From contig CAVXVB010000007.1 of assembly GCA_963765205.1 (NCBI GenBank), positions 160,001-224,000 of the forward strand: a stretch of 64,000 nt of DNA. Reading direction: 5' to 3'. Below the pieces are notes generated by a model. That model had not been told where the DNA came from. It was given only the letters and a program-made list of their open reading frames with translations, and did not search any database. How positions within the stretch are numbered: the stretch's first letter is position 1; every line of letters begins with the position of its first letter. A program made the position numbers and the translations under genes. Shown here one piece after another: positions 15,154-43,700 of the stretch. The DNA is from an uncultured Verrucomicrobiae bacterium. GTDB taxonomy: Bacteria > Verrucomicrobiota > Verrucomicrobiia > Opitutales > JABDGR01.

Positions 15154-15338
15154 GCGGGTGCGGGTGGCGCGGGATTTTATTTTACCCAACAACGCAGTAT
15201 TTTGCTGCGGCTCTGGATGAAACGGGGCGGCAAAAAATGCGCGTGCGATGTAATTCAGGCTTGTGCTTCGCGTGAAGTGCGTTAACCTCGCCCTTGTGGC
15301 GGCTCTGCGCGCTGCAGGACGCCGTCCGTATTTGCTCC

Positions 15339-16934: not shown

Positions 16935-16940
16935 GGCCGG

Positions 16941-16975
16941 GAATTAAGAATTAAGAGTTAAGAATTAAGAAGTGA
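16941..16975 (+). repeat. Heptamer tandem repeat (AATTAAG)n
   Basis: GAATTAAGAATTAAGAGTTAAGAATTAAGAAGTGA between convergent stop codons. Confidence 0.8.
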
Positions 16976-16986
16976 GGGACCGCCCT

Positions 16987-18150: not shown

Positions 18151-18159
18151 GGGAGGGGG

Positions 18160-18187
18160 GAATTAGGAATTAAGAATTAAGAAGTGA
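18160..18187 (+). repeat. Heptamer tandem repeat (AATTAAG)n, read as (CTTAATT)n in the leader of the minus-strand gene
   Basis: GAATTAGGAATTAAGAATTAAGAAGTGA. Further degenerate (TCAGAAA)-type heptamers lie at about 18230-18335. Confidence 0.75.
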
Positions 18188-19569: not shown

Positions 19570-20438
19570 GGCGCGCGGCGGGCTTCGCCCAACCGTCGCC
19601 GACGAGGCAGGATAAAACAGTATTTTAGACTATAAATAATAACTTTTATATATTTAAATATTATAATTAATAGAAATAATGAGTAATTACGCGATCCACG
19701 GCCCGGTCGGAGTTCATGAATAACGAACGACAAGAGGGAACATCTGAGCACCGGCATCTAGGCATTTTACCCTAGAAAATTCAAATGAAGTGGCAATGGG
19801 CGGGCTGGGTTCCAAGCAGGAAACCAAAATGTGAACAACTCATGTCTTTTGCTCTGAATCAAAGACTTGGCAGGATGGTAAACTGTGAATAAAAAGGATA
19901 AATACTACGTTTAAGAACGTTATTATTGACCCAGGCCAGTCATTTTTGGCAGGGGGGATAAAAGGGGCGGTTTTCGCTCTTAAAAAAAATGAAAAAAATT
20001 CGTAGAAATATGTTGCGCCCTACAATTTTTTTACAATAATGGAAGTTAGCTGCGATTCTTCTACCCTCACCCCCCAACGCGTGTGTTCCCGAGTTAGATT
20101 ACGGGAAGGCCGCGTTTAGGTGTTTTCGCCCGTTGCTTTCCCCCAACTCCTGATAAGGGTTATTATTCCCTTTAATTCCCCTTAAAACCCCTTAAAACCC
20201 CTTGAATGATCGTTGCCCCGCCGCCCGCCGCCGCGCGTTTTCCCCTGGGAAAGGCGTTTTTCCGCTGTGCGGCGAGCGTTGATGATGCGCCAGTCAGGCC
20301 GTTGGTTTCCACCCCACCCCCACCCCTTTAAAAATAAACCCCCCCCCCCCTTGGTTTTCCGGTCCGGTTGCGCCAGTGCGGCAACCCGGGCTGAAATCCG
20401 AGGGAAAAAATCTCACCCCCGACCGCTGTTTCTGCAAC
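19570..20438 (+). promoter_or_regulatory. Long AT-rich upstream region of the giant gene
   Basis: About 870 bp non-coding. It has a very AT-rich block at 19615-19690, A-tracts at 19982-19998 before TTGCGC...TACAATAAT (20013-20040), a 10-nt tandem CCCCTTAAAA-type repeat at 20168-20205 and a C12 tract at 20339-20350. Confidence 0.5.
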
Positions 20439-22787
20439 ATGAACGCAACCCACCAAACTCGTTGTGACCGGACGAAAGTCCGGCCTGGGATCATTTTTCT
20501 TTTTGGCGCCCTGCTGGCGGGCCTCCTGGTTCCCCTGGGGGCGAGAGCGCAATTAACCATCGTGGACAAGGCCGACAATTCGTTGAGCCTGGACCAGGCG
20601 CTCACCGACATTCAGGACATCGCCCTGAACACCACCGCCGGCAGCGGCGACGAGTTGATATTCAACGGCACGCTGGAGTCGTTCAACCAGACGATTTCGG
20701 TGGGCGGCGGGGTTTGGGTGGGCACGCTGGCGGTGCAGAATCCGCAGGGGGCCATTTTTATCACGGGCAATGCGACCAATGCCGCGGCGGCGCTGACGCT
20801 GGGCAACCTGTCGGTCACCGGCGGCGGCGGCATTGACATGAGCAACACCTCGGTGAACCTGAGCATCTCCGCACCCGTCACCCTGGCCAACAGCCTCACG
20901 TTCACGACCAGCGTCAACGGCACCATCACGGTCTCGGGGCCGATTAACGACAACGTCCTGGGCGTCAGCCAGGGTTATGGCATCACCATCGGCCAGTCCA
21001 CCACGGCGGGCGACGTTTTTCTTTCGGGCAACAACACCTTCACGGGCAACCTCACGCTCAACGCCGGCACGCTGTATTTGAGTGGAAACAACAGCGCGGG
21101 CAACGGCGCGCTGGTCATCAACTCCGGCGTGCTGGAGAACAACAGCGGCAACGCGATTGTGCTCAATATTCCCGTCGTCATCGGCACGGCCGGGAACGCG
21201 ACGAGCGGCAACTTCACGTTCGACACCCAAGGCAATTCCAGCATCGCCAACGCTTCGAACAGCATGGTGTTCAACGATGGCGTCACGCTGGCGGTAAACA
21301 CAACGGTGACGACTTCCACGAACAGCGGGTCGTATGGTGGTTCCGGGAACCTGACCTTTAGCAACGTTACCGGCCCGGGGAACCTGACCCTGAAGGGCGC
21401 AGGCCCGAACCAGTTGGTGCTGGTGGGCACCAATAATTTTGGCGGCGGCGTGAACTCGGTGACGCCGGTGCTGACCATCAGTTCGGGGTCGGTGCGGTTG
21501 GGGTCGAACGGTTCGGTAACCGGCATCCCCGCGGAAATGGGCACGATTGCGGGTAACATTAACTCCGCCGGCGCGTTGCTCATCTTTAACGAGCCCTCGA
21601 ACTACACGGTCACGAACAACATCACCGGGACGGGCGGCGTGCAGCAACTCAGCACCAATAATACACTGACCTTCGGGATCACGGAGACCTACAGCGGCAC
21701 CACGACCGCCACCGGCCCGATTCAGCTCGGCTATTTTGGCCCCAACTTCAGCGGCAATTCCGCCTTCGGCATCCTGACGGCCAGCAACATTTCCATCGGT
21801 AATGGCAGTGCCCTCACCTTTGCCGAGCCGGGCAGCACCACTTATAATGGAACCATTTCCGGCGGCAATGGAGGGACTTCAGTGACCCTGACCGGGGCCG
21901 GGGTCCTGGCGAATGCCACCTACACGACCAACCAGACGGGCGCGAACAACAATTTGACCTTTGCGGCGAACACCTCGAACGCCTCCCTGGTTGGCGGCGC
22001 GGGCGACAACATCACGGTAACCTATATATATACCGGGGCGAATGCGGCGGAAGCGGTGGCGGTCAACGGCACGGCGATTACGGTCACCCTTGGGGCCACC
22101 GGGGGCAACACCGCCAGCGTGACCACGAACCTGAGCGGGAACAAGGACATCACTTACACGGCGGTGAACGCCGGGGCGGGGGCCGGCAACATCAACATTC
22201 AGTATGCCCAAAGCTCGACCTCGAACATCACCACGGCGTCGGTCAGCAACGGCAACATCATCGTGAGCCTGGCCAACGCCACGGCGAATGCCACGGCGCA
22301 GAATGTCATCAACGCCATCATGAACAATGTGCAGACGAATGCGCTGGTGACGGCAACGCTTGCGCCGGGCAGCGCCGGCAACGGCACGGAAGTGGCCACG
22401 ACGTCCAACATCACCCTGGCCGACACCGGCCCGGTGATAACCGCCACCACCGGCCCGGGCGCCTATGTTGCGGGGGTGAACTCGACCATCACCTCGACGG
22501 CCAATTCCATCATGGCCGATTTGAACATCAACAGCACCGCCAATGCGGTGATTAGCACCTCGCTGGCGAGCAGTGACGGCGGGGTCGGCACCGGGGCCTT
22601 GACGTTCGAATCTAGTCAGCGCGCTGGTGGGCACGGCGAATCTGACGGGCGGCACGAACCCCGCCATCACGCTGACCCTGGGCAATTTGACGAATGGGAG
22701 CAGTTACAATGGCACGACGACCATCAGCGCCGGCACCATCGTGATGGCCAACTCCTCGGCCTTGGGCAATTCGACGCTCATATATAA
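20439..22787 (+). CDS. Giant adhesin ORF segment 1 (signal peptide, PATR repeats; real frame ends about 22605)
   Basis: LSGNNTFTGNLTLNAGTL. The tail after FESSQR is out-of-frame sequence. Confidence 0.75.
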   Translation: MNATHQTRCDRTKVRPGIIFLFGALLAGLLVPLGARAQLTIVDKADNSLSLDQALTDIQDIALNTTAGSGDELIFNGTLESFNQTISVGGGVWVGTLAVQNPQGAIFITGNATNAAAALTLGNLSVTGGGGIDMSNTSVNLSISAPVTLANSLTFTTSVNGTITVSGPINDNVLGVSQGYGITIGQSTTAGDVFLSGNNTFTGNLTLNAGTLYLSGNNSAGNGALVINSGVLENNSGNAIVLNIPVVIGTAGNATSGNFTFDTQGNSSIANASNSMVFNDGVTLAVNTTVTTSTNSGSYGGSGNLTFSNVTGPGNLTLKGAGPNQLVLVGTNNFGGGVNSVTPVLTISSGSVRLGSNGSVTGIPAEMGTIAGNINSAGALLIFNEPSNYTVTNNITGTGGVQQLSTNNTLTFGITETYSGTTTATGPIQLGYFGPNFSGNSAFGILTASNISIGNGSALTFAEPGSTTYNGTISGGNGGTSVTLTGAGVLANATYTTNQTGANNNLTFAANTSNASLVGGAGDNITVTYIYTGANAAEAVAVNGTAITVTLGATGGNTASVTTNLSGNKDITYTAVNAGAGAGNINIQYAQSSTSNITTASVSNGNIIVSLANATANATAQNVINAIMNNVQTNALVTATLAPGSAGNGTEVATTSNITLADTGPVITATTGPGAYVAGVNSTITSTANSIMADLNINSTANAVISTSLASSDGGVGTGALTFESSQRAGGHGESDGRHEPRHHADPGQFDEWEQLQWHDDHQRRHHRDGQLLGLGQFDAHI

Positions 22788-25700
22788 TACCGGCGGCGGG
22801 GTTTTGAGCTTCGGCACCTTGACGACGGCGAATTTGGGCGGCTTGAGCGGGAACCAGAATCTGGCGCTCACGAATGCCACCGGAACCAACATCACGTTGA
22901 ACGTGGGCGGGGACGGCGCGAGCACCACTTACACCGGCGTGCTTTCGGGCAACTTGGGCAACTTCACCAAGTCCGGCGGCGGCACGCTATATTTGACGCA
23001 AAACAACACTTACACCGGTTTCACCAACATTACGGGCGGCCAGCTTGAAATTGGCAATATAAACGCCTTGGGCGCCAACGTTGATGGCGCGGCCAATAGC
23101 AATACCAGCCTCCAAGCGGCGAGCTTGAACATCAGCGGCGGCGGCGTGGAATGGGCGCCGAATTACCTGAGCACCTCCGGGGACAATGGCGACTTCACCG
23201 GGAAACTGGGCGTCCCCTCCCCCTCGACGCCGAATATCGGCAATGCGAATTTTAACACCAATGGCAACAACATCACCCTCACCAACAATATCCTGTTCCC
23301 GAATGGTACTTACGCTCTCTCGGGCAATGTCGGCATGACGGCGGTGCCCGGCAATGCCAGCGAGACCATCACCAAGTCCGGCACCGGCACCCTGGTGTTG
23401 GCCGAACCGTTGACAATCAATGTTACGACCGGCGGCAATGGCTCCGCCACTTCCGCGACCGTGAACGTAACGAACGGGACCTTGCAATTGGGCAATTTCG
23501 CAGTGGCGGGCGGGCAGCCGGTGAGCACCGCCGTCGGCGCCACCTTCAGCATCGCCTACAACATTTCGGACAACGCGAACCTGACGATGGAGGAACCGGT
23601 TTCGGCGACGATTAGCGGCGCGATTTCCGGCAACGGCGTCCTCAACGTCAACTCGACCGCCGGGCAGGTGGCGAATTTGACCACGACGGTGGCCGGGGCC
23701 AACAATGACATTCTTTATACGGCGGCCTCGGGCGTAGGCCCGACGGGAAACAACATCACCGTCGCTTATAACACGGGGTTTACCAACAGCTCCTTGGATA
23801 GCCAATATGCCAATGGCACCGGCGCGCCGACCTTTTCGGTATCGGGCAACGCGATCACGGTGAATCTGGCGAATGACGGAACCGCGCATGGCGCCAATTT
23901 TACGACCACTTTTGGCAGCAATAATGACGTCACCTACACGGCGAACACCTCGACGGAGTTTGGGGCGGCGGGCAACGGCATCAACATTGCCTACGTCAAC
24001 CCGAACGCCACCACGACGAGCACGACCGCCGTCGTTAATGCCACGACCAACACCATCACCGTCAACCTGGCGAACACGGGCTATGCCACGGCGAACCAAA
24101 CCGTGCAGGGGCTTACTTACACGGCCAACACGACGAATTTTGGCGGCACGGCCGGCAACGGCATCAGTGTCAGCTACGTGAATCCGGAGACCAGTAACGC
24201 GCCGCTCGGCTTTGTGGTGAACGGCACGAACCTGACGGTGAATTTGGCCACCGGGAGTTTCACCAGCGCGAACTTGGCCACCGGGCCCGCCAACGGGAAT
24301 ATTACCTACACGGCCAAGGCCAACGGTACGGCGACCGACAACATTCAAGTTGCCTATGTGGTTGCCGGCAATAACACCCCCCTGACGCTAAATGTCACCG
24401 GCAACCTCATTACGGTTAATCTGGCGACGGGCCCCAGCGGCACAGTCAGCACCACGGCCGCGACGTTGATCACGACCATAAACGGCAATTCCTCGGCCAA
24501 CGCCGTGCTGACGGCGGCCAACACGACGGGCAGCACGGGTGCTTCGACGCTGACGGCGTTAAGCGCGACGAACTTGACCGGCGGCTTGAACGGCGCCTCC
24601 GCGGCCAATCTCTCCACCAACAGCACGGCCACCGGCAGCAATGTCACCTTTACGTCGGTCGGGCTGGGCACGGCGCAGGACAACATTAAAGTTGCGTATG
24701 TCATTCCGTCCACGGCGAACTCCCCGCTTTCCATCGGGGTCTCGGGCAACAACATTACGGTGAATTTGGCGACCAATGGCGCCGATGCCCCGACGACGAC
24801 GGCGGCGCAATTGGTCACGGCCATCGCTTCGACGCCCCTGGCCGCCAATCTCGTCTCGGCCAGCGACCCCATCGGCAACGGCACGGGGGTGGTCGCGCTG
24901 TCCAATGTCAGCCTGACGAGTCTGGCGAATGCCACGGATCCCTCGATTACCACGAACGCCACCGCCCTGCAGACGGCGCTGACGGCCAATCTGACCTCCA
25001 ATGCCACGTTGGGCGCCTTGCTCAGCGCCGTGGCCGGGACGGGCACGAGCAACCTGACGACGGCGGGCGCAACGGCTTTTGCGAATGGTTCCACCGGCAC
25101 GATAACGGCCAACGCGTCCCAGGTGGTCACGGCGGTTAATGCGGTGGCCAGCGCTCTGGTGACGGCGGCTGTCGCGAGTAACGAGACAGGTGCGGGGCTA
25201 ATCACGAATGGCACGGGAACCATCCTGGCCACGAATCTCACTGGCGGACTGAACCCGAACATCACGACGACGGCGGAGGACCTGCTGACGGCGATCTCCG
25301 GAAACACGAACGTGCTGAACCTGGTGTCGGCGAATCTGGCCTCCGGGAACGACGTGGGCGAGGGCTTGCTGACGGGGATGAACACCACCAGTTTGGGCGG
25401 GGGCGCGATTTCGACGGCCACCACGCTGACGCTCACCGGCAGCAACAGTTTCAACGGGACGATCAACCTCAATGGCGGCACGCTCGCCATCGCGGTCACC
25501 AACGGGACGAACAACAGCACCACCACGCTGCAGAATTCCATCCTGAACTATGCCAACGGCACGTTCAATTACGGCAACTCGACCATCGTGGATTTGGGCG
25601 GCTTGACCGGCAACCAGAACATTGCGCTGACCAACCCGCAGAATGGCAAGAATGTGCAGTTGGTCATTGATGGATTCCAAAGCCCGGCCACGAGCAGCAT

Positions 25701-28700
25701 CCTGGGCGGCACCTCGAATACCAGCACCGGCACCGGGGTGCTCTATACCGCGACCCCGAACAACACAAACGGGAACCTTTCCATTGCTTATGTGGTGAGC
25801 GGCAACAACACAGTGCCTTCGGTGACCGTCAGCGGCAACGATGTCATCACGGTCAACCTGGCCACGAATGCGACGGGCGCCGTCGCTTCGAATATGACCG
25901 CCGCCGCCGTGGCGGCGCTGATCAACGCAAATTCCGCCGCAAGCGCGTTGGTGACGGCCGCCAGCAGCGGCACGGGGGTGGTGGGGGCGTTGTCCGCGAC
26001 CACGCTGGCCAATGCGGCCAATCCGACGGCGGGCGCGGCGGGCACGGTGGTGTCGAATGGGGTTTACAGCGGCGTGTTGTTCGGCGCAGGCTCATTGTTC
26101 AAGAGCGGCGTGGGCATCTTGACCTTGAGCGGCACGAACACCTACACGGGCGGCACCGTCATCACGGGCGGCGAAGTGGATTTCGCTTCGGGGGTGAATT
26201 TCGGCACGGGCAACCTGGTGTTGTTCAATGGCGGCATCCAGTGGGCGCCGGGCACGACGACGGACATCTCGAGCCAGTTGAAGGGGCCGTTCGGCGGCCT
26301 GATCGGGAACCTCACGCAGAATTCCGGCAACGACACGCTGGACACGAACGGCAACAATGTGATTTTCAACACGCCGGTTTCCGGCAACGGCACGTTGGTC
26401 AAGGCCGGCCAAGGGATTCTGACGCTGGCGGTTCCGAACACCTACAGTGGCGGGACCATACTGTCGGCCGGCCTCATAGACTTCAGCTCCCTCAGCGACT
26501 TTGGCACGGGGCAAATTACCCTGGCGGGCGGCGGCTTGCAATGGGGGCTGAACACCAACCTTGACGTCAGCAGCCGGTTAAACCCGGTCGTCATGGGCGC
26601 GAACGCAACCTTCTCGACGCCCAACAATTTGAATCCCGCCTTCACCAACACCAACATCGGGTTGGTGATCACCGCGAACGGCAGCACCACCCTGGCGGAC
26701 GGCTCGAACGGCAACAACATCACGATAATTTTTGGGCTTTCCCCGTCCAACACCACGGGGTTGACGATTAACGGCACCACCATCAACGTGGCCCTGAACA
26801 CGACGGCGACCGCTTCAAACGTGGTCTCGCTCATCAACGGCAACGCCACGGCGGCGGCGCTCGTCAGCGCGGCCCTGGCCCCGGGCAGCAACGGCGGCGG
26901 GGTGGACAACTATTTTGGGACGTTTAAGCTCTCGGGCGGCACGGACAGCACCCTCGACACCCAGGCGAACAATGTGACGTTGAGCGCGTCGCTGACAGGC
27001 CCCGGCGGCCTGGCCAAAGCCGGCAGCGGCATCCTGACGCTGACGGGCATCAACACTTTCACGGGCCCCACGAGCGTGAACGCCGGCACCTTGACGCTGG
27101 GCAACTCGCTGGCCTTGGAAGACAGCACGCTGACGCTGACCAATGGCAGCGTTGGCACGCTCAATTTCGGCAGCCTGACCAGCGTGACGTTTGGCTCCCT
27201 GGCGGGCAACGGCACCTTGGACCTGTCCAATTCGGTCCCCTCCGCCAATGCCACCACCGGGGTCCTGAATTTGATCGTCGGCTTGAACAATCTGAGCACG
27301 ACCTTCAACGGCACCATCACGGACGTAAACAGTTACGGCGGCACGGTGACGAAAGTCGGCAACGGCACCCTGACCCTCACCACGCCGAATACCTACACCG
27401 GCCAGACGTTCCTTAATGGCGGCGCGTTTGACTTTAACAACGTCAATAACTTTGGCGCCAACGGCGACGCCAACCTGACGATCAATGGCACGCTGGGCAC
27501 CAGCGTCATCTGGGCGCCGCAGGCCACGGGTCCGAGCGCGGATATTTCGAGCATCCTCAACAGCACGGGCGGGCTGGTTACCGGGAACATCACCTTCAAT
27601 TCCAACAGCAATGAGGTGACCCTCGCCACGCCGCTGAAGGGCAGCGCGAATTTGACCGCCGCGGCGGGGACGAGCATCCTGACGCTGGCGGGCGGCGTCA
27701 GCTCCAGCGGCCTGCCCAATGTGACGATCACGTCGGGCACCCTTGCGCTGGGCAACATCGGCAGCAATGGCGGCAACACTTCCGGAAACATCGCCATCAA
27801 CAATGGCACCACGTTGTATTTTAATGAGAACACGGCGCAAACCTTCTCGGGCCTGCTTTCCGGCGGGGGCAACATTAATGTCAACCCGGGCATGCCGGCC
27901 CTGAGTGTGGCGGCCGAGTCGCCGGCGAACACGAACCTCAACCTGTTTGCGAACGTCTTTGGGCCGATTAGCAACAACATCACCGTCCAATACGTCAACC
28001 CGGAGGCCAACAACCAGGCGCTGGGCGTCACGGTCAACAACACGACGGCGAGCCTGCTCGTCGGCTCGGTGGGTGCGAACAACGGGATCACGATCACGCC
28101 GAACGCGGCGAATGCGTCGGTGGCGGGCATTTACGGCGACGGCATCACGATCCAATATGTGCAAGGCGGCGGCAACACGACCACGGCGGCCAGCAGCGGC
28201 AACGTCATCACGGTCACTTTGAAAAGCGGCGGGGACACGGCGGCTGACGTCATCACGGCCCTGGCGAACAACGCCACGGTGGCCGCGTTGGTGACGGCGA
28301 CCAACGCGACGGTGGCCAATGTCACCAGCACGGGCGCGGGAATTATCAACACGACGGTGACGACGACGGCGTCGCTGCCGCTGATGGGCGGGGCGACGGC
28401 CATCGTGGCCAGCCTGGCCACGGACGGGAACGGCACGGCGGCCAACGCGACGACCACCTTTGGCAACAACAACGACTTGGTGTTCACCGCCAACGGCACG
28501 GGAGCCACCGGCTACTTTGGTTTCGCGGGCAATAATATCACAGTGCAGTATGTGAATGGCGTGGGCAACAACACCGCCACCACGGCGTCGGTCACGGGCA
28601 ACACGATTACGGTGACCCTGGGCACGAACGGCACCGGGGTGGTAAACGCGACGGCGGCGCAGGTGGCGGCGGCGATTGCGGCCAACACCTCGGTGGCCGC

Positions 28701-31700
28701 GTTGGTGACGGTCGCCAATGCCGCGAACAGCAACGGGTTGGGTTTGGTCTCGGCGACGACCTTGAATTTGACGGGCGGCGTGGACCCGAACATCACGACG
28801 TCGGCCAGCGCGCTGCTCTCCGCCCTGAACGGCAACACGACGGTGCTCACCGCGGGATTGGGTTCGGGCAGCAACGGCTCGGGGGATGTCACCAACGGCA
28901 CCTTTACCCTGAGCGGCGGCCTCAATGGCAGCGCGACCCCGGTGACGCTGAGTGACAACAGCAATCTCTTTTCGGGCAACGTCTATTTGAGCAATGGCTC
29001 GCTCACGCTGGGCGCCCCCCTGGCGTTGCAGTATGCCACGGTCAATGACAACCTGGGCGGCGGCACGCTGAGTTTCGGCAGCTTGACGAATGCGACCTTG
29101 GGCGGCCTCACCGGCAATGGCAACCTGGCGCTCGTGACCACGGCCGGCTCGGGGAATGTGACGCTCACTTTGGGCCAGGGTAATGTCAGCAGCGCCTTCT
29201 CCGGCATTATATCCGGCAATGTCAGCACCGGCGCCGGTTCGTTGATCAAGATCGGCTCGGGCACGCTGACGCTGTCCGGCATCAACACCTTCACCGGCGG
29301 CATGGTGATTGAGGGCGGCTTGGTGAATTTCAATTCGGTGCGCAGTTTTGGCAATGGCGGGGCCAACAGCGTCACCCTGCTGGGCGGCGGCATCCAATGG
29401 GCGACCAACACGGCCACGAATGTTTCCGGCATCCTGAACCCGGTGCTGGCCAGCGGGCCGACGAACGACTTGAACACCTTCGACACCAACGGGAACAGCG
29501 TCACCTTGTCCACGGCGCTGTCGGGCGTGGGCGGCATTGTCAAGCAGGGCGCCGGCACGCTGACGCTGACCGGCAACAACACCTTTATCGGGCCGACGTT
29601 CATCAACGCCGGCAGCCTGGCCTTGGGCAACGGCACGTTGCCGGGCTTCCTGATCAATTCCGCCCTCACCAACAATTCCAGCCTGCTGTTTAACGAGCCG
29701 CTGGACACCGTTTACTCGTCGGTGCTGGGCGGCGGCGGCGGCGTGTCGCAAGCCGGCCAGAACTCGAGCGGCATTTACTCGATCACGACGGGAAATACGA
29801 CGGCCAACAACGGCCTGACCTACGTCGCGACCGTGGCGAACCCGACGGGCGCCGGCGTTACCGTCTCTTATGTGCAAGGCACCGGTTCCACCACGACCGT
29901 GGGGGTTTCCGGCAGCAATATTACGGTGACGCTCCCCGCGGGCGGCGCGAATGCGACCCAGGTGCTGACGGCCCTGACCGGGTGCAGCAGCGCGCTGGCC
30001 TTGGTGACGCCTGAATTGACGCCGGTGATTGCGCCCTCCGTCGCGGTGCCGAATAACACCGGAAATGGCAGTGTCAGCGTGACGGGACCCTTGAATATGA
30101 GCGCGCCGCTTTACCAGGCGACGATCGGTTCGGCCAGCCAAGGCACGGGCTTGACCTTTACGGCGAGCACGGCGACCGCCGGCGCGGCGGGCGGGACCAC
30201 GACGATCCAGTATCTGGCCGGCACAGTTGCGAACCCGACCGTTTCGGTTAACGCGACCAACAACACCGTCATTGTCACCTTGAGCAATGTGACCGCCAAC
30301 AACACGGCCTCGAATGTCTTGGCGGCTTTGACGGCGGCCATTAATAGCAATACCGGCGGCATTGACAATTACCTGAGCAATGTGACCCTCACGCCCGGCC
30401 CGCAGGCATTTGGCGTCACGGCTGGCGCCGGTTTGGTCACGGCGGCGTCGCCGAAATTGATTGCGCCATTTACGAACCTGGTGCTCACCGGCAACAACTC
30501 TTACACCGGCACCACCTCGATCCAGGCGGGCACGCTGGTGGTGGGCAGCACGCTGGCCTTGCGGGACACCACGCTGAACTACAACACCACGACAAGCGGC
30601 ATTCTGGCCTTCGGCTATGCGAACGCGACCGCAAGCTACCCCGTCACGGCGGCCAACATCAATATCTTCAACGGCAACACGGATTTGGCCTTGATCAACA
30701 ACCAGGGCGGCGGCGTGGCCTTCAGCATCGGCGATAATAACGGCAGCTCGAGCTATTCCGGCAACTTAACCGGGCCAGGCTCGATCTTTAAAGTCGGCAG
30801 CGGCACCCTGACGCTCGGCGGCAATCTGAGCAGCTATGCGGGCGGGACGACCGTCGCCGGCGGCACCATCCTGTTGACCTCGGCGGACGACAGCACCTCG
30901 AGCCATCCGCTGGGCACCGGCTTGATCACGATGAACGGCGGCACACTCTCCCTGCCTTCCGGCGACACCTTTGATCCGACCGCGCAAGGGTTCACGTTGG
31001 GCACGGTGACCGCCAACGTGAACGGCACCTTGACCCAGGTTGCGACGAACAGCACACTGATCACCGTTAGTAACCTGACGTTGGCAAGCCCCATCACCGG
31101 CCCCAGCAATGGCGCGGCTTCCGGTTTGGACATCCAAACCGGCAGCAACATCACCACCTTGGTGGCGACCAGCACCTACCTTGGGACGACGACGGTCGGC
31201 GCGGGCACGACCCGAGGCAACCTGACGTTGAGCAACAACGCAACCAGCACCGGCGGTCTGGCGGGGCCGATCAACTTGTCGGGTAACCTGGGCAATTCCA
31301 CCTTTTCGAATCTGACCTTTAACATCAGCAGTTCGGCGCCGGGACTCACCGCCGGCAACTATACGTTTACGCAGAACATCAGCGGCAACGGCAACTTGAG
31401 CGAAAATGGCACCGCCAGCCTGATTCTGTCCGGCACCAATACCTACGACGGCAATACGACGATAGCCGCCGGGGCCGGCAGCATCTATCTGGGAAGCTCG
31501 AATGCCTTGGGCAACAGCACGTATGCGTCCAATAGCACGACGGCCGGCACGCTCCAGTTTCTCGCGGGGGCGGGCGGCACGTTTGTCTTGGGCGGTTTGG
31601 CGGGCAACGCGAGCATCCCCTTGGTGGACACGGGGAATAATCCCGTGATTTTGGCGGTCGGCGCCAACAGCATAACCTCCGCCACGCCCTACAACGGCAC

Positions 31701-34700
31701 GCTGTCGGGGGCCGGCGGGCTGATCAAGACGGGGTCGGGCACCCTCGTGCTGGTCGGCAACCAAACTTACACCGGCGCGACGGCGATTCCCTTTGGCACT
31801 TTGCAACTGGGCAACAACACCGCGGGCCTCACGACCGTGTTGACCAGCACCTCGGGCATCAACGATGTTGGCAACCTTGCTTTTGACGAACCGGCGGGCA
31901 CGCTGACCCTCAGCACCCTGATTTCCGGCGGCGGCACCCTGGCGCAAATTGGCAACGTGGGTTCCACGCTCGTGTTCATCAATCCCAATGACGCCCTCAG
32001 CGGCGGCTGGACGGTCACCAACGGGGTCATTCAATTTGGCGACGGCACGCAGCCCAATGCGACCTTGAACACCACCCACACCACGCAGCCGGAGGGCACC
32101 CTGCACCATCACCTCCCCCGGGGTGGTGATATTCAACGATACGCAGTCCATCGTGAATGGGGCCCTGGCCAACACGGTGGTTACGACGTTTATCCAGGGC
32201 ACGGGCACTTTGGTGCAAAACGGCTACACGAACACCACGCTCGCCAATTTGACCACCGGCTCGGGAAGCACGGCGCTGACGTGGACGGCCAATGGGACGG
32301 GGAACACGACTTACGGCGGCATGTTGGGCAACAACATCTCGATTGCCTATGTGACGCCGGAAACGCCGAACTCACCGCTGAGCTTTACGCTGACGGGGAA
32401 TGCGTTGACCGTGAATTTGGCCACGAACGCCACCGGCACGGCGGCCAGCAATATTCTTGGCGGCACTTCCAATACGAGCACCGGCACCGGCGTTGACTAC
32501 AAGGCGGTCACGATTGGCTCGGCCGGGAACAACATCGCGGTGAATTATGTGGTGGCGGGCGACAACACGCCGGCATCCGTGGCGGTCAGTGGCAACACCA
32601 TCACCGTCAACCTGGCCACGAATGCGACGGGCGTGGTACTGCCGACCATGACGGCGGCCAACATTGCGGCGAACGTCAATGCGAATCCCGCGGCCGCCCT
32701 CTTGGTGACGGCGTCCAGCACCGGCACCGGTGTTCCCTCGGCCAATTTTTCGGGGACCTTGGGCCAGGCGACCGGCGGAAACAACACCCTGCAATCAGCG
32801 GGCGTGGACACGGTCTCCATCACCACCCCGGCGAACATCGCCAGCGCCTTCACGAATGGAACGGCGAACGCCACGGTCACGGGGATTCTGACGGTCGCCG
32901 GCACGGGCGCGGGCAACCTGAGCGCGCTGGCGGCCACCAATCTGGCCAACGGCGTGTCGCTCCCCGCCTCGCTGACGCTAACGAACAACAACACCATCAC
33001 CACGGTTTCCTTCAACTCCACGTCGGCGGCGGCGACGACGGCGCCGGGCGATTTGATTCTGGGCGGCTCGCTGGCCCTTGAAAACGCCAACATCACCGGC
33101 TACAACACGGGCGGGAACATCGGGAACCTCAACCTGAACGCCGTGAACGCGACCAATACGATTGCGAACGGCGGCTTGACGGCGGTGACGCTGGGCGGCC
33201 TCAACGGCAACAAGACGCTGGACATCTCGAACCTTACTTTCACGCTGGGCAACAACAACGTCAGCAGCACCTATGCCGGCATCCTTGCGAGCGCCACGGG
33301 TCCGGCCACGCTGGTCAAGACGGGCAACGGCACCCTCGTGCTGGTTAACAACAGCACCTTTAACACGTCCGCATCGGCCACGCCGCTGGGTTCGAACGTG
33401 ACGGTCAACAACGGGACGTTGCAACTGGGTAATGCCACGCTGCAAGGCATGGTGCCGGGCTCGATCCAAGTGCTCAGCCCGAACATCTCGAACGGGACCA
33501 TAGCCACGCTGACCCTGGCCGAGCCGCTGAACTTCACCTACGGCAACGTGGTCTTTGGCTCGGGCAATTTGACGCAGAACGGCAACACGCCGGCCACCCA
33601 GGCGGCGGGCACGACGGCGCTCACCAACGCCAACAGCAATATCACTTACACGGCCGTGGCCGCCGGCACGGCGGGCAACGCCTTCAACGTCAGCTATGTG
33701 AATCCGGGCACCCAGAACTCGCCGCTGAGCTTCACGGTCAACAGCACCAACCTGGTGGTGAGCCTGGCGACCTCCAACAACGGCGTGAATGCGAATGCCA
33801 CGACCAGCTTTGGCAACAATGAAGACCTGCTCTTCATGTCCGAAAAATCGGGCACGTCAAGCAACGGGATCACGGTCAGTTACGTGAACCCGGGAACTTT
33901 CCTGGCCGCGCCGACCATCGCCTCCGCCAATGCGACAAACGTGGTCGTGGACTTGGCGACGACGGCCGCCACCGCCGCCAACGCGACCATGAGCACGAAT
34001 CAGTTGAGCTTCACCGCCAAAGCGGCCGGGGCCCAAGGTGACAACATTCAGGTGGTGTTCGCCACGCCCTCGGGTGCGTCAGATACGGTCACGGTGTCAG
34101 GCAATATCATCACGGTGACGCCCAAGACCGGTGGCGACTCTCCCGCCAACATCGTCACCGCCCTTGGCAATGCGACGCTTTCGATTGCCCCGTCTTTGAT
34201 TACCGCGGCCGTGGGCTCCAATAGCACAGGCAACTTTACGACTTCGGAGGCCGCGACCACATTGGCCAACGGCACCAACCTCACGATCAATGCCACGACC
34301 AACACGGCGACGGCGATTGCAAACCTGATCAACAGCAATGCGACGGCCAATGCGGTGTTGACGGCGAACATTGCGCCAACCCAAACCGGTGCGGGCGATG
34401 TGACGACGCTGGGCACGTTCACGCTGGCGAACGGCGCCAACGCCTCGATTGCCTCGAACATGACGGCGGCGAACATCCTTGCGGCGGAATTGGCGAACAG
34501 CAGCGTCACCGGCAATGTGACGCCATCGTTGAGCGGCACAGGCGCCGGGCTGGTGACGGCGTTCGGTCCGATCACCCTGTCGGGCGCGACGGCCGCCATC
34601 GGGAACACATTAACTTTGACCGGGGCGAACACTTACACGGGCAATACCACGGTTTCACAGGGCACGCTGCAAATTGGCAATGGCACGGCGGGCAGCATCA

Positions 34701-37700
34701 GCCCCAACTCGAGCATCAGTCTGGCCTCGAGCACCAACCTGATCATTGACGAAGGCCCGACCATCACGTTGTCCAACCCCATCACCGGCGCGGGCAACGT
34801 GTTTATCCTGCAAACGAACCCCGTGACGCTGACCGCCACGAATTTCACCGGCGGAACTTACATTGGCCAGGGTGGCACCCTGGTGCTGGGCGGCAACACG
34901 GCCTTGGCGAACTCGACGCTCAACCTCATCCTCGGCAACTCCTCGGCGAATGGCGCGCTGAGTTTTGGGACGCTGACCAATGCAAGCATCGGCGAGCTGT
35001 CCGGCAACGAGAATTTGGTGCTGAGTTCGGGCTCCACTCCGCTGACGCTCACGTTGGGGAACAACACCAACGCGGCGGCGGCCATTTATACCGGCAATTT
35101 GAGCGGGTCGGTCGCCGGCACGAATTTGATCAAGACCGCCAACAGCCAGCCGCTGACCTTGGCGGGCACGCTCACCTTTAACGGCAACATCACGACCAAC
35201 GGCACCCTGACCCTGTCGGGCAATGTGCAAATTGGCGGCGGCATCAATGTCAACAACGGCACGCTGACGTTGTCCGGGCCGAATAACACCTACACGGGTG
35301 GAACGACGATCAACAGCACGGCGACGGCGCAATTCAACTCGGCGAGCAGCTTTGGCACGGGGCAAATCGTGGTGAATAATGGCACGCTGCAATGGAACGG
35401 GCCGAATGTGAGCGCCCCGAACCTGGACATTTCGTCGCACCTGACCAACGGCATCGCCACGGGGAACGTGACCTTGAACTTGGTGAACACGGGTGGGGTG
35501 GCGGAAAACGTGACGTTTAATTCGGCGATTGGCGGCAGCGGCAACCTGATCATCCAAGGATTTAATGGCACCAACGGCACCGCCGCCACCACCGGCGCGG
35601 CCAATGCCAGCATCACCTACTCGCTGCCGACCACGCTTTCGAATTTGGGGAACGGGATTCAGGTGGCCTTGGTTAATCCCGAAATCGCCAACTCGTCGCT
35701 GGGGGTATCGGTCGCCAACATTGCGGCGAACCTCGCCACGGGCAACACGGCCAGCAACAACGGCATCACCTACTCGGCCAACACGTCCACGGCCAGTGTG
35801 GCGGGGATTTTTGGCAACAATATCACCATTGCCTATGTGAACGGCAACGGCCTCAGCGTGCCGACGACGGCCTCGGTGACGGGCAACGTCATCACGGTCA
35901 CCCTGGGCACGGATGCGACGGGCAATCTCAGCGTGGCGAACACCACGGCGCAGAGCGTGATTAACGCCATCAACGCCAACAGCAGCGTGAAGGCCTTGGT
36001 CAACGCCTCGCTCACCACGGGTGACACGGGCGGCACGGGCTTGGTGATACCGCAGGCGGCGACGACCTTCACCGGCGGCGCGACGACCGTCAATGTGAGC
36101 CTGGCCACCAATACCTCGGGCACGTTAGCCAACACGACGCTGGGCACGTCGCAGCCGGACGCGGCGGTGACGTTCACGGCTCCGAAACAAGGCGCGGCCG
36201 CAGTGACCATTGCCTATGTGAACCCCGGCGTTGCCAATTCGACGCTGGGCGTGGCCAGCAACTCGACGGCCACCAACATTGTCATCAACCTGGCGACGGA
36301 TGCGAATGGCAACGTGACCACGACGGCGGCGCAGATAGCGAGTTTGATTGGCAATGCCACGGTGGCCAATGCCACTTTCAGCAACGGCACCGCGGTCAAC
36401 ACGGTGGTCTATGCGTCCCTACCGGCGACGGACAGTGTGGGCGGCGGCGTGGTGCCGGTGCAGTCGGCGACCTGGACGGCGGGCACCGCGGCGGGCATTA
36501 CTTCCAACGCAACGCAAGTCATCAGCGCGATTAACGGCAACACCAGCCTCATCGTGGCCAGCAACACGACCGGGAGCACGGGGGCGGGCCTGGTCACAGC
36601 GGCGAGCGCCAACCTAACCGGCGGCGTTAATGCCGGCGTGCTGACCCTGAACGCCGCGGACCCGAACCTGAACGGCCCGGTCAACATCACCAACGGCACC
36701 CTGTTGCTGGGCAACAACAATGCGCTGCAAAATGCGACCCTGAATTATGGGCCGGGCGCCGGCGTGCTCCAATTTGCGCCGGGCATTTTGTCGCCCAACA
36801 TCGGCACCGTGAATTTGACGGCGAACCTGCAGTTGACGACGACAGCCGGGCAATCCATCACGCTCATTGAAGGCGGGAACAACCAGACGACCACCTTTAC
36901 CGGAACTTTGAGCGGCACCACGGTCAACAATGTCGGCAACCTGACGAAGATTGGCACGGGCATTCTGTTCCTGGGGGCGAACAACACGTTTAACGGCACC
37001 ACGACGATCAGCGGCGGCGAAATCAACTTCTCGTTCGCCGGCAACTACACGACCTACACCCAAGGCGCCACGGCGACGAACTTCGGCTACCAGCCCAACA
37101 TCGTGCTGAGCGGTGGCGGGCTGCAATGGGGCGCGGGCGTGACGGTGGACCTTTCGCCCAACATCACCATCGGCGGCACCAACGCGCTCGACACCATTGA
37201 CACCAACGGCCAGAACGTGGCCCTGGCCTCGACCGGGTTCAGCGGCACGGGCGTCCTGGTCAAGGCCGGTGGCGGCACGCTGACGTTGACGCAGCCGGAA
37301 ACCTACAGCGGCGTGGCGAATGCCTCGCTCGGCCTGGGCACCACGATCATCACCGGCGGCGCGTTGCAATTGGGCAATGGCTCGACCTCCGGCATCGGCA
37401 GCGTGGCGACCGGCTCGAATATCACGGACAATGCCATATTGATCTACAACGAAGGCGTGAACACGACCGTGAACAACCTGATCACGGGCACGGGCGGGTT
37501 GGTGGAGAATGGAATCAACACGGGCCAGGCCTCGAACACCACGACCTTTGGCAGCCAGAAGGACTTGACCTTCACGGCGGTGGCCGGTGGGAATTTGACC
37601 TACAATATTTCCTACGTTGCGCCGACGGCGTTGGGCGCGACGCCGAGTGTCACTGTCAGCGGCGGCAGCAACATCACGGTGCATTTAGGCTCAGTGAGCG

Positions 37701-40700
37701 GGAACGCCAACCTGACCACGAATGTGGGCGCCAACGCGAACATCCTCTACACCGCGAAGACCACCGGCGGCGGCGGCAATAGCGACACCGTGACCTATGT
37801 GGCCGCGGGCAACAACACCCCGCTTTCCCTGGCGGTGAGTGGCAGCAACATCACCGTCAACCTGGCCACGAATGCCACGGGCGGCGTCACTTCGACGGCG
37901 AATCAGGTGCTGGCCGCCTTGGCCGCCAACACAAGCGTCACCGCTTTGGTGACGCCGACGATTGCCCCGGGGAATGACGGCACGGCCGTGGTGGCCGCCC
38001 TTTCGCAGACCCCCCTGGCGAACGGCACTTCCACCCCGACGGCGAACTCGACAGCGGAGCAGATCATGTTGTTGCTGCAGAACACGCCGGCGGCGACGAC
38101 GCTGATTAACGCGGTGCTGGCGAACGGCGAAAATGGGTCGGGGGTGTTGGCTACGACGGGGTCGCCCATCGTGGTGAGCGGCGGCAGCAGTTCGACCGCG
38201 GCCACGAGCTTGACGCTGAATGCCGCGAACACTTTCAACGGCACGACCAGCATCCAGGCGGGCACGCTGATTCTGGGCGTTCCGCTCGCGCTGCAAGACA
38301 GCACGCTTAATTATGTCACCACGGGGGGGGCGCTTTGAGCTTCGGCTCGCTTTCGGCGGCGACCCTGGGCGGCTTGACCGGCAATCAAAACCTGGCCTTG
38401 ACCAATGGGACCAGCGCGGCGGTGGCTTTGACGGTCGGCCAAAACAATGGTTCGACGGCTTATTCCGGCAACCTGACGGGCAGCGGCAGCTTGACCAAGT
38501 CCGGAACGGGCATCTTCACCCTCGGCGGGTCGGGCGACAGTTACTCCGGGGGCACGACGGTCACCGGCGGTCTGATCAACTTCAACGCCCTGGCGCAGTT
38601 TGGCTCCGGAGCGCTGGTGCTCAGCGGCGGTGGCGTGCAATACACGCTGGGCCTGACGGCGGACGTTTCGAGCCTCATCGGGGCGACGGGCCTGGGCGCG
38701 GGCAACGACACGATTGACACGAATGTCAACAACGAGACGTTTGGGACGGCGCTGGGCGGGGCCGGCACGCTGGTCAAGGCCGGCGCCGGCACGCTGTTCC
38801 TCTCGCGGCATGACACCTACACCGGCGGCACCATCATCACCAACGGCCTGATTGATTTCACCTCGGTGGCAAGCGGCTCGACCAACTTTGGCACGGGCGT
38901 CATCACGCTGGCCGGCGGCGGGTTGCAGTATTCGGTCGCCAGCACCGGCACGGACGTTTCGCCGAACATCACCCTGGGCACCGGCCTGGACACGATTGAC
39001 ACGAATGGCACGACGGAAACGTTTGCCACCTCCGTGCCGGGCACGGGCACTTTGGTGAAGGCCGGCGCCGGGACGTTAATTCTGGACGCGGTGGAAGGCT
39101 ACACGGGCGGCACCGTCATCAACGTGGGCACGCTGCAATTGGGGAATGGCGCGGTGAACGGCTCGATGAACGCCACGCTGCCGTCCTTCAGCAATATCCA
39201 GGACAACGCGGTCCTGAACTTTGACGAAGCCGGCTCGACGAGCTTTGGCGGCATCATCTCCGGCACGGGTAATCTGACCCAGGTGGCGGCGAACACGCTG
39301 ACCCTCACGGGCGCCAGCACCTTTGACGGCACGGCTTCGATTCTCTCCGGCGGCACGTTGACCCTGGGCATCAGCACCGCGCTGCAAAACGCGACGCTGT
39401 CATATACCACCACGGGCGGCGCCTTTAGCTTCGGCAGCCTGCCCAATGCGGCTTTGGGTGGCTTGAGCGGCAACCAGACCCTGCCGTTGACCAATAATGG
39501 CAGCGCGGCGGTGGCCTTGACGGTTGGCGCCAATGGCTTCAACACCACGTATAGCGGCATCCTGAGCGGCAGCGGCAGCCTGACCAAGATTGGGAACGGC
39601 ACCTTGACCCTCAATCCGACCGGGACGAATTCCTACGCCGGCAACACGACGGTTAATGGCGGCACGCTGGATCTGGCGAGCGCGGGGGCCTTGAGCAACG
39701 CCGGCACGAGTGCGCTCATCGTCAACAACGCCAGTGTGCTCAACGGTCTGGGCGGCGCCCTAAGCATCAACAACAACCAGACGTGGTCGGGCAATTTGAA
39801 CTACATTGGCAGCTTCACCTTTGGGAACGCCGCCACGCCAAGCACGTTGACCCTGGCGAGCAACTCCACGCTCAATCTTTCGGGCAATGTGCTGGTTTAT
39901 AACGTGAACCCGGCCAATGCCACCCTGGCGGGGGCGGCGGGCAACAATGTGAGCATCACCTATGTGAAGCCGGGCACGGCCAATTCGGCGGCCAGCCTGT
40001 CCGTCACGGGCAACGCGATCGTCATCAACCTGGCCACGGACGCCAACGACAATGTGAGTTCGACGGCCAACAGCATTCTCAATTTGATTGGCAATTCCTC
40101 GGTGACCAACGGCACCGCGGCGGGCAATCTCGTGACCGTGGCGCTGGGCGCGAACAGCACCGGCACCGGTTTGCTCAATGCGTCGGCCCTGGCCTCCCTC
40201 ACGGGCGGCAATGCCACCAGCAACGCGACGCTGACCAGCATTTTTGGGACGACGACGATTAATGACGCGATAGTGCAGACCGGGACGCCGGGCGAGACGC
40301 TGGCGGTCACCGGCGCGGGGAATTTGACCTTCGGGGGCAATGGCACGGCGGCGGCGAATCTCACTTCGAGCATCAACGCCCCGCACCTGTCGGTGACGGG
40401 CAATGAAGTCATCACCATTGGCACGGGGGCGGTGGTGAATGCGGGGGCGCCGAGCAACGCCACGAACCAAGGCTACAATGTGTTCGGCTTCAATCCGGGG
40501 GACAATGTCACGTTGACGCTGACCGGCAACGGCATCTTGAACAGCGGCAACGTGGAAGTGGGCTTGGGCAACACGGGCGCCCTGCAAGGCGTAATCAACT
40601 CGACGCTGAATATCGGCGGCACTTCGCAACTGACCGCGAACGACCTGTGGATCGGCGAGGGCAGCACGGGCGACTCGGTTTCCGACTTTACGACGGCGCT

Positions 40701-43700
40701 GGTCAATCAAACCGGGGGCACGGTGATTTTGACGGGGAACAGCGCCGGGGGCGGCGGGTTGCAATTGGGCGGCCAATTCTCCTATGTGCTCAGTTCGACC
40801 AACGTAACCTACAATTTCAGCGGCGGCAATTTGGAGACCACGTCGATCGTGGCGGCGAATGTCGGCACCACGGGCTCGGTGTTGTTTAACTTCAACGGCG
40901 GCATTTTGACGGCCCTGGCCAACAGCAGCATCGCGGGGGTTAATGGCGCCACCGCGAACACGACTTTCATTTCGGGCGGGGCCCTCGGGGTCAATTCGCT
41001 GGTGGACAACGCGGGCGGGGCGATCATCAACACGAACGGCTTTAACATCACGATTGCACAGAATTTGACGCACAACCTCACCTTGGGCTTAACGCTGGAC
41101 GGTGGTTTGACGAAGGTGGGCGCGGGCACCTTGACCTTCCCGATTACGCAGAACGACACTTACACGGGCAACACGACGCTGGGCAACGCCACCACGGTGG
41201 GCGGCACCTTGAATGTGTCGCAAGACAGCGCGCTGGGCGGCAATCCGAATGCGACGCTGATCTTTGGGAACACGGCCACGCTGCAACTTGGCTCGACCTT
41301 CACCCTTGGCCAGGGGCGCACGGTCAGCATCGGCAGCAGCCTCACCGGGATCATTGACACCCAGACTTACACCTTGAATTTCGGCGGCAACATTGTGGGG
41401 CATGGGAGCTTGGAAGAAACCGGCAGCGGGACGTTGAACCTGTTCGGGTTCAACACCTACAATGGGAGCACGATCATCAACTCCGGCACCCTGGAGCTCA
41501 ATTACGCCAGCCCCGGGGCGCCCTCGACGAACATGATCAATGGGACCTCGGCCTTGGTGCTGAATGGCGGAGGCACCCTCTTGCTCCAAGCCATCCCGGT
41601 GGCCCTGACCGACACGCAAAATTTCAGCAGCACGCAGATTAATGGCGGCACCGGCGTGGCCACGGTCACCATCAACGGTTCGGCGGCGGCGAGCGGCCCG
41701 ACGGTGAACCTTAACTTTGGCCCGATGTCGCGCACGACGGGCGGCGTGCTGGAACTCACGGAGGCGGGCAATGGTTCCTTGAACTTCCTGACCCCGTCGA
41801 GCGCCGGCCTGAATGCGCACGACATCACCGACAGCGATCATACACCGTTTGTGGTTTTAAGCACCGCGAACAACGGGGTGGACTGGGGCGCGTATGGCAA
41901 TGCCTCGACCACCGGGGCGCCCATTGTGCCCCTGAACCAAGTGAACGGCTACACGCTGATCACGTCCGCCGCCAATTTGAGCAATGTCAACTCGCCGACG
42001 GAAAGCGTCGCCCTGTCTTCGCCACTTCAAAAGTTCCAACTCTCCTCGAATGTGACGATGTCGGATATTTCCTACCTGACGCCGCAAAGCGTCAATCCGA
42101 TTATTGACATCAACCAGATCTATGCGATGGCCGTGGGCGGCGTGTTGGTCTCGAACGGCATCGGCAACGGTAACACCGCTGAAATCGCCGACGGCGCCAT
42201 AACCCCGGTGGCGGCGGGCGGCGACCTTCTCGTGGTCCAGGGTCAGCTTGGCGGCTCCAGCGGAGCCGGGCTAATCTTTACCAACACCATTCTTGCCAAT
42301 GTGGGCGGCCAGCCGACAAGTCTGGTAAAGATGGGGGTGGGCAACCTTGCAGTGGATGGCGGTCCGGGCTTCAACGGCTTTACCCCTTTCACCGGCAATA
42401 CCTACCTGGACCAAGGTTTCATCCAGTTGAGTCCGGTCAGCACTGAAAACGGCGCAAATGGCACGACGGTGAATTCCTTCCTGGAAAACAGTGAACTTAT
42501 CTTCCAGGGCGGCTCGCTTAATATTCCACTCAACCCCTCCGGCTTCGCCCAGGTTGGGGGTATTGCGGGCACGCAGAATATCGTCATCCTCAGCGATGGC
42601 ACGCTGGCACTCACGCCGCGCGCGGGGGTCAATGCGGTGTTGAGCGGAAACATCAACAGTCTGGCCAGCGCTGCGCAGTTTAGCCTAATCATGGCCGGCC
42701 CCGGCAGTGAAACGCTGAGCGGCAACAATTTCATTGAAGGCGGGATCATCACCCTCGAGGGCGGCACGCTCAAAATCGGCGGTGCGGCGATCTTTGGCAA
42801 CGGCACCACCAATACGGAGGACACGCTCTATCTCCAGGGTGGCAGCATTGACAGCCTCGGGTTTACGTCGGTGGTGAATAACACAACTCTCACCAACACC
42901 CTTAACCCCATACCAATTAGCTTCGTTGATCCGAATAACATCAATCCCAACGGCGCGGTGACCTATGTTGGTTCCACCACCGGGTTGACGCTGGGCTTGA
43001 ATGGCAACATAACCCTGGCCACCTCGTCGTCCTCGGCCACCAACACGATCACGGTAACCAATAACACCTTGACCTTGGCGGGGGTGATTGGCGGCAATTC
43101 GGAGATCGTCAAAGCCGGCCCCGGCGCGCTGCAATTGACGGGGAACAACGGGAACATCACCGGCGGGGTTTACTTTAATGGCAACATTCTCCTCACGGGC
43201 GGCAATCTGGTGGTGACGAACGACCTGCAATTGGGCTTGGTGCCCACGCTCACGGGCACGACGGCCTCCTCCGGCAACATCCTCATCGAGGGCGGCGCGC
43301 TCAATGCGAACTTTGCCATCAGCGGCAACCGCGTGATCGAGGTCGGCAACGCGACCCTGGGCAACGGCACGTTCAACGTGTCGACCAACACCTCGACCGT
43401 GGTGTCCGGGTATATTGAAGATGTGACGGGGAACACAGGCGGCATCCTCCAACTGGAGGGCAATGGCACCTTGGTGCTCAACGGCGGCGCGGCGAACACC
43501 TACACCGGGGGCACGGTTTTGAGCAGCGGCATCCTCAACATTATTTCGACGGCGTTGTCCACGGCGGGCACGGCGGACGGCGCGTTGGGCGCGGCGGCGG
43601 CGGGCGTCACCTTCACGGGCAATGCGACGTTGCAGGCCGGCACCACGACCGATCTGAATGCCGCCCGGTTGGTTACGGTTAGCCCGGGTGTCACGGGCAA

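Follow-up and report, generated by a model that had tools for sequence, protein, structure and literature searches.

Introduction

Recursive self-insertion of a protein domain has a precedent in SI3 of the cyanobacterial RNA polymerase beta-prime subunit. The available text of one report describes a single small domain inserted into copies of itself through six levels, with bifurcating nodes at which one host carries several insertions (PMC13114784), and that of another places nine sandwich-barrel hybrid motifs (SBHMs), entirely beta, within SI3 (PMC10120043). Here we describe trees formed by copies of one alpha/beta module inside a giant gene for a probable surface protein of an uncultured Verrucomicrobiae bacterium of the Opitutales. 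The gene lies in a stretch of 64,000 nucleotides, hereafter the window (assembly GCA_963765205.1, contig CAVXVB010000007.1, positions 160,001 to 224,000). The likeness to SI3, as far as the text at hand goes, consists of recursive self-insertion together with a bifurcating node, i.e., a host carrying inserts at two loops (PMC13114784). In contrast to SI3, an all-beta SBHM array of fairly fixed layout in one cytoplasmic enzyme, the window module is an unrelated alpha/beta domain that forms many trees in a probably extracellular protein. Moreover, species of a single genus differ in their tree layouts, and flagellin, hook, phage, and adhesin-like hosts are among those between which it moves. An SBHM/HABAS identity of the module was considered and rejected on the basis of the central helix in an AlphaFold model and of covariation. 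Judging by the parts of the SI3 publications available, the principle of forked recursive self-insertion is already known; this domain and its setting were not found in the literature searched.

Three further systems are close to the locus. Giant PATR/PEP-CTERM proteins have both of these hallmarks in common with the host protein, whose genome encodes two exosortases; the host differs by the 33 tree-forming modules on its shaft, and a literature search aimed at a PATR/PEP-CTERM giant with inserted module trees yielded no papers. Outer domains are also added in loops of phage tail sheath proteins and flagellins, according to the portions of the reports at hand (PMC9230969, PMC11532411, PMC11948020). 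In flagellins, variable domains are nested between the D0/D1 ends, and the window module is likewise present in many flagellins. A flagellin survey clustered whole outer regions; its available text contains no occurrence of “nested” and no description of the module (PMC11532411). With the outer domains of tail sheaths (PF17481; phage Milano gp20; the phiCD508 tail), all matches were weak or below cut-off. Sheaths nest unlike domains one within the next along a single line and are not known to build a branching tree from copies of one domain. In the literature listings searched and the papers cited here, we found neither this domain nor a mention of the many loops that it uses, of variable trees on giant surface proteins, or of a module common to flagella, phages, and adhesin-like proteins.

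Two forked modules in the window

The module is a domain of about 110 amino acids (aa) comprising strands A-B-C-D-E, a helix, strand F, and a closing tail, and it has no Pfam or NCBIfam family. A sequence-only reading of the window had proposed that at 27900-28925, and again at about 35585-36625, one such module carries daughter copies at two different loops. All peptides quoted in support were located in frame, on the plus strand, where they had been placed, and the layout is borne out in both regions (27904-28923 and 35582-36628): the parent is parsed in three pieces around two complete daughters, one in the D-E hairpin and the other in the E-to-helix loop. Fork 1, as delimited by profile and parser (all tree coordinates in the window refer to the plus strand), opens with parent strands A-D (27904..28038). 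Daughter 1 follows in the D-E hairpin at profile column 51 (28039..28392; 118 aa; 67.1 bits), then parent strand E of 14 aa (28393..28434), daughter 2 in the E-to-helix loop at column 64 (28435..28782; 116 aa; 90.0 bits), and the parent helix, strand F, and closing tail (28783..28923). Fork 2, delimited in the same way, consists of parent strands A-D (35582..35716), daughter 1 in the D-E hairpin, also at column 51 (35717..36079; 76.2 bits), parent strand E (36080..36121), daughter 2 in the E-to-helix loop (36122..36487; 42.9 bits), and the parent helix with closing tail (36488..36628). Thus, the inserts of one parent occupy two loops, at columns 51 and 64 or 69, and the daughters are complete, scoring 42.9-90.0 bits across nearly the whole profile. 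At the level of sequence, the host domain is discontinuous and becomes whole once its inserts are removed. Both forks interrupt a rung of the beta-helix between a ‘GGGNINVN’-type strand and the following ‘TL(S/N)’ strand; therefore, the trees would protrude from the shaft.

The profile behind these scores has 111 columns and was built from 18 unbroken window modules, with both fork regions left out. After excision of the daughters, as the sequence-only reading had proposed, the rejoined parents align to it collinearly, with 43.7 bits (columns 12-110) and 37.0 bits (columns 8-110), and none of 200 full shuffles matched the score of either parent. The short middle strand contributes to this match: shuffling these 14 aa alone costs 7 and 14 bits and reaches the parent score in 3 of 200 (fork 1) and 0 of 200 (fork 2) cases, while leaving the strand out lowers the scores to 31.1 and 17.6 bits. 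An automatic excise-and-rescan parser recovered 33 modules in the window. Of these, 13 are nested: the E-to-helix loop holds 11 (columns 59-69) and the D-E hairpin 2 (column 51). The D-E insertions are restricted to the two regions named by the sequence-only reading, and the parser found no further forks.

The extreme composition, in which T, G, N, and A make up 54% of residues, could be read to mean that the host beta-solenoid simply continues in this region and that the modules are low-complexity repeats of these residues; an unguarded profile did drift onto the solenoid, and one AlphaFold model drew daughter 1 with beta rungs. Against this, the composition-corrected profile matches discrete modules only, and the same parser finds none in reversed sequences. 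Covariation shows i,i+4 pairs in the helix and a mixed sheet, and the same module stands alone in phage and flagellar proteins. A continued solenoid is largely refuted by these observations, and we regard it as very improbable.

Folding of the split parents

Whether the three parent pieces come together as one domain was addressed by structure prediction and by covariation. Two AlphaFold models were computed from alignments of 10 and 7 rows. In the first, the structure prediction proposed by the sequence-only reading succeeded for the daughters of fork 1, whose cores fold into strands B-C-D-E, helix, and strand F with a predicted local distance difference test (pLDDT) score of 73-82 (74-82 for daughter 1 and 73-77 for daughter 2), but not for the parent, whose N-terminal piece and strand E remain below 50 in both models.

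Covariation in unsplit modules pairs D with E in a hairpin, places C parallel to E and the helix against D and E, and brings the tail into contact with both C and E. From 572 unsplit modules, the top 20 contacts that span the E-helix split were learnt and then scored separately in 113 split parents. There they reach 0.72, whereas random pair sets give 0.01 ± 0.09 and re-pairing within the same columns gives 0.07 ± 0.10 (0 of 10,000 in either case); permuted halves give −0.07 (25 runs). Of the 20 contacts, 4 rank poorly in split parents. For the D-E split, 20 parents were tested with their own daughters held out of training. Native pairing exceeded parent/daughter swaps in 18 of them (p = 5e-5), including both window forks, which scored 15.4 vs. 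4.9 and 2.0 (fork 1) and 15.3 vs. 10.3 and 6.5 (fork 2). The couplings expected of an intact module are thus directly observed to be kept across both splits.

In our opinion, it is probable that the parent pieces join in three dimensions as one domain carrying two daughters, i.e., that the fold itself is forked. A number of results speak against such a fold. The parent scores fall in the lower part of the range spanned by the 18 stand-alone modules in leave-one-out scoring (30.9-83.6 bits). The alignment suggested by the sequence-only reading, to the stand-alone module at 25693-26019 (parsed here as 25687..26031; 64.6 bits), was marginal, being equalled by 40 and 48 of 1000 shuffles, because the sequence is of low complexity. 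Mean pLDDT was 50.3 and 48.5 in the two AlphaFold models, and the second drew daughter 1, for which it had no alignment depth, as all-beta without a helix. Coupling scores of parents are below those of held-out daughters (11.4 vs. 15.5), and 4 of 20 D-E parents fail to outscore the corresponding chimeras. Finally, the covariation p-values overstate independence, the sequences tested being related.

The same data bear on a different outcome of a nested history, in which the parent has decayed to a flexible, possibly glycosylated tether or has swapped strands with its daughters. In keeping with decay, the parents are unresolved in both AlphaFold models, parent 1 has a shortened helix segment and a profile match that begins only at column 12, and both profile and coupling scores lie below those of the daughters. 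A decayed tether is, however, difficult to reconcile with the register and hydrophobic pattern of all three pieces being kept in four or more genomes, with the bits lost on shuffling the middle strand, with the preference for native pairing, and with the 59% identity of parent 1 to an intact relative. We therefore hold decay to be unlikely, and the forked fold remains our preferred reading.

The sequence-only reading had pictured the arms as Y shapes. Forking is supported, but a symmetric Y at the tip probably is not, since one site precedes strand E and the other follows it, with the hairpin nearer the base. Both module termini couple to column 31 (ranks 21, 31, and 33 of 5,671 pairs), and in a rough contact graph, from which the branch geometry is derived, the D-E hairpin lies at a distance of 22-29 from the termini vs. 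42-47 for the E-helix loop. For this reason, a D-E daughter would probably leave near the base as a side spur, and an E-to-helix daughter would lengthen the arm, pushing it outward from the far pole. A module whose ends lie side by side could be fitted into any surface loop, including the loops of another copy. Modules would thus be seated in loops of the PATR beta-helix shaft, and in both fork regions the parent would assemble from its three separated pieces while bearing two complete daughters.

Evolution of the trees

Matches to fork 1 were found in 3 of 6 same-genus genomes and in none of the 54 other genomes searched. Within the genus, the trees differ in size. One giant, on contig 8 of genome G003 (G003:C8), has 31 modules with 2 D-E and 12 E-helix nests and one fork; another (G003:C11) has 52 modules with 9 D-E and 21 E-helix nests, two forks, and six levels, all in a single protein of 15,328 aa. 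The same fork recurs there in more deeply branched form (G003:C8 32937-31185 and G003:C11 26277-24150). On G003:C11, two loci (33075-28884 and 44805-42363; L025 and L026) hold very large module trees, which include a tree of six levels bearing tandem daughters as well as D-E spurs, and an internal fork on a second-level module.

Filled and empty hairpins can be observed directly among these relatives. The place syntenic to fork 1 holds the same fork in G003:C8, its second branch being three levels deep, and in G003:C11 it holds the closest relative of parent 1 with an empty hairpin. Among 127 other modules, the closest relatives of parents 1 and 2 are module 38313 of G003:C11 (59% identical) and module 24309 of G003:C8 (53% identical), both with an unoccupied D-E hairpin. 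In a tree of 128 modules over 114 columns, in which many branchings are unresolved, each parent clusters with its closest relative (support 95, starred, and 91). Exactly fork 1 is also present in another organism (P0017), in a protein 51% identical to that of the window across 1,431 aa. Relatives of daughter 2 were confirmed at no fewer than four loci among the matches listed in the species-genome scan (L032-L035; 49-69% identical), all from an uncultured Opitutales bacterium. Two permissive sites on one parent are therefore supported by the profile test, by relatives with empty hairpins, by forks in other organisms, and by covariation across the splits. Nesting across the family uses five or more loops, vs. 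two in the window.

The recurrence of the layout at the second region stands, but the two filled hairpins do not represent independent events: the first daughters of both window forks belong to one starred clade (98), and the second daughters do not share such a clade. In the orthologous fork of G003:C8, the first daughter comes from a different lineage. It is possible, though unlikely, that the fold is as described and each filled loop is an independent insertion at a tolerant site, with no copying between modules. D-E inserts with differing linker lengths do occur in unrelated hosts (P0013, P0080, P0097, P0122, P0153, and P0164), and D-E bearers require 4 changes on the tree, but the starred branches force just 2. 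Independent insertion also leaves aside the single register shared by D-E junctions within the genus, the common clade of the window first daughters despite parents of different lineages, and the daughter of another lineage in the G003:C8 fork. Because hairpins are filled or empty in relatives and the daughters have the tree placements described, we conclude from the sequences that daughters are gained, lost, or exchanged between species as whole cassettes. Reshaping of the trees by gain, loss, and swap of whole daughters would most plausibly proceed through recombination between copies sharing flanking strands.

Other trees in the window

The remaining nests of the window use the E-to-helix loop only. 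A two-level nest (21903..22668) spans the first reading-frame break and was parsed with X at the break; its parent was missed by a re-parse of the window, which returned 32 modules, and was left over in the D-E pairing test. A four-level nest of five modules, with two tandem daughters at its innermost site, lies at 23659..25419, followed by nests of two levels at 32231..32968, three at 33590..34603, and two at 37517..38197. Tandem pairs of modules at a single site (24250-24948, 29764-30474, and 54784-55443) represent a third mode of branching besides nesting and forking.

The host gene and its assembly

The giant gene extends over 20439..60405 on the plus strand and encodes about 13,300 aa, in the assembly as six overlapping open reading frames (ORFs). 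Its order is a signal-peptide-like start, as judged by eye, PATR beta-strand repeats (PF12951, TIGR02601) into which 33 modules are inserted, and a C-terminal PEP-CTERM motif. PF12951 matches all six ORFs, above cut-off in five, and the sorting motif lies at 60289..60357 on the plus strand (PF07589, 23.3 bits with a cut-off of 20.7; TIGR02595). The host genome has two exosortase genes. A Pfam scan of the window proteins gave no match to a beta-barrel translocator family in the giant protein, which ends in PEP-CTERM instead; on these grounds it was not assigned to the classical type Va autotransporters. The sequence features suggest that the protein is most likely located at the cell surface, where it would be exported by its signal peptide and then anchored through PEP-CTERM and exosortase.

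The six ORFs are most likely a single gene. Three of the five frame breaks (22605, 32104, and 38322) are covered by one short-read contig each, at depths of 3.6-7.1, and each contig has a one-base difference fitting the frame change; two further breaks lie near 46.05 and 50.5 kb. In same-genus genomes, frames of 13,111 and 15,328 aa run through without a break and share the C-terminus of the window giant. The broken pieces stand in the database as separate proteins (P0021, P0030, and P0109).

Such indel errors within the same giant gene would favor an assembly artefact as the source of the fork layout. Where identity is listed, however, the 20 largest of 53 direct-repeat families in the window are at most 79% identical. 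Contigs of short-read run X1, which may be the window's own sample, give depth in 30 of 30 bins across 20200-40100, and one of them, with the same proviso as to sample, covers 28251-29359 without differences. Mis-assembly is unlikely for these reasons, and the presence of the same fork in independently assembled genomes refutes an artefactual layout for practical purposes.

The sequencing runs containing the window DNA are soil metagenomes, all of one study. Within the 92%-complete host genome (G000), the module was found solely in the window's giant gene. The genome has 25 PEP-CTERM-like ends, and its contigs C9, C10, and C12 carry other frames of 2,000-4,200 aa. Elsewhere in the window, the protein encoded by 3517-5550 is 677 aa long and has a putative adhesive domain of the ice-binding-like type (PF20597). 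A further two ORFs (15294-18180; 546 and 402 aa), neither with a Pfam match, are located immediately upstream of a radical SAM gene and of the giant gene itself.

The module in other proteins

The module is spread over 4,330 clusters, including flagellins, hook proteins, and phage tail proteins. Single copies are optional inserts in phage tail sheaths (P0008 and P0012; phage ZRG1), flagellins, and FlgE; in flagellins, some of them named Planctomycetaceae or Bryobacteraceae, the module is frequently nested. Foreign proteins also show self-insertion at other places, namely in the A-B hairpin, in the C-D loop, and directly following either the helix or strand F (P0018, P0020, P0024, P0034, and P0049; P0046, P0100, and P0105; P0092; P0037), and P0161 has a fork at A-B and C-D. 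In an uncultivated phage, a single module lies within a probable tail tube protein (L036, 2722-4083), whose gene is flanked by head-tail connector-like genes on one side and a tape-measure-like gene on the other, the roles being judged by eye.

Known families did not account for the module. PF17481 (Phage_sheath_domII) matched none of the window modules; its best matches to foreign homologues, in 2 of the 59 proteins that were scanned, reach 24.3 and 20.3 bits and stay below the cut-off of 31.4. The flagellin hook IN motif (PF07196) had no match in 10 window proteins; in flagellin P0122, an IN match (204-250) lies outside the parsed modules. Residues 128-220 of the Milano sheath (chain T of PDB 8fop) have a helix-like motif ahead of the strands matched to B-E. 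There are hints that the outer domain of this sheath is a circular permutation of the module.

Composition and proposed function

The fork trees are almost uncharged, with 10 and 8 charges per about 345 aa, and lack cysteine. About half of their Asn residues lie within N-X-S/T sequons; in the whole giant protein, this holds for 666 of 1,666 Asn (40%), vs. 385 ± 16 expected. Sequons reach 1.6-1.7 times the shuffled expectation in the giants of the window, G003:C8, G003:C11, G004:C5, and G005:C1, and the excess is absent from homologous modules of smaller foreign hosts (342 vs. 377 ± 15 expected). GT41-type enzymes glycosylate such sequons on adhesins. The sequon excess suggests that the arms are probably N-glycosylated. 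This proposal is weakened by the enzyme side: an STT3 oligosaccharyltransferase was not found in the 92%-complete host genome, and the only GT41 match is a single partial one at a contig end (G000:C7 420372-420745).

For the function of the trees, we place about even confidence in a structural role: on a protein anchored by way of exosortase, the arms would make up a brush, branched and probably glycosylated, which would widen the surface for adhesion, matrix building, or shielding.

Biological significance

Surface repeat proteins are normally regarded as beads on a string. With repeats that are nested and forked instead, giants of this kind, as well as some flagellins and phage structural proteins, call for a different parsing. 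Domain scanners return only fragments of such trees, and ordinary aligners collapse the daughters onto one another. We tentatively suggest, with somewhat less than even confidence, that the module is a widespread “dendrimer brick”, which accepts itself at five or more loops and forms self-similar trees on cell surfaces, flagella, and phage particles, recombination copying occupied loops into empty ones. If this is true, the shared flanking strands would let tree shape evolve fast, in the manner of a cassette system for surface architecture. The family provides hundreds of natural examples of loops that tolerate the insertion of a whole domain, filled and empty in close relatives, and through such pairs the evolution and folding of nested domains become directly testable. 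The module could also serve protein design as a branching unit that occurs in nature and is genetically encoded.

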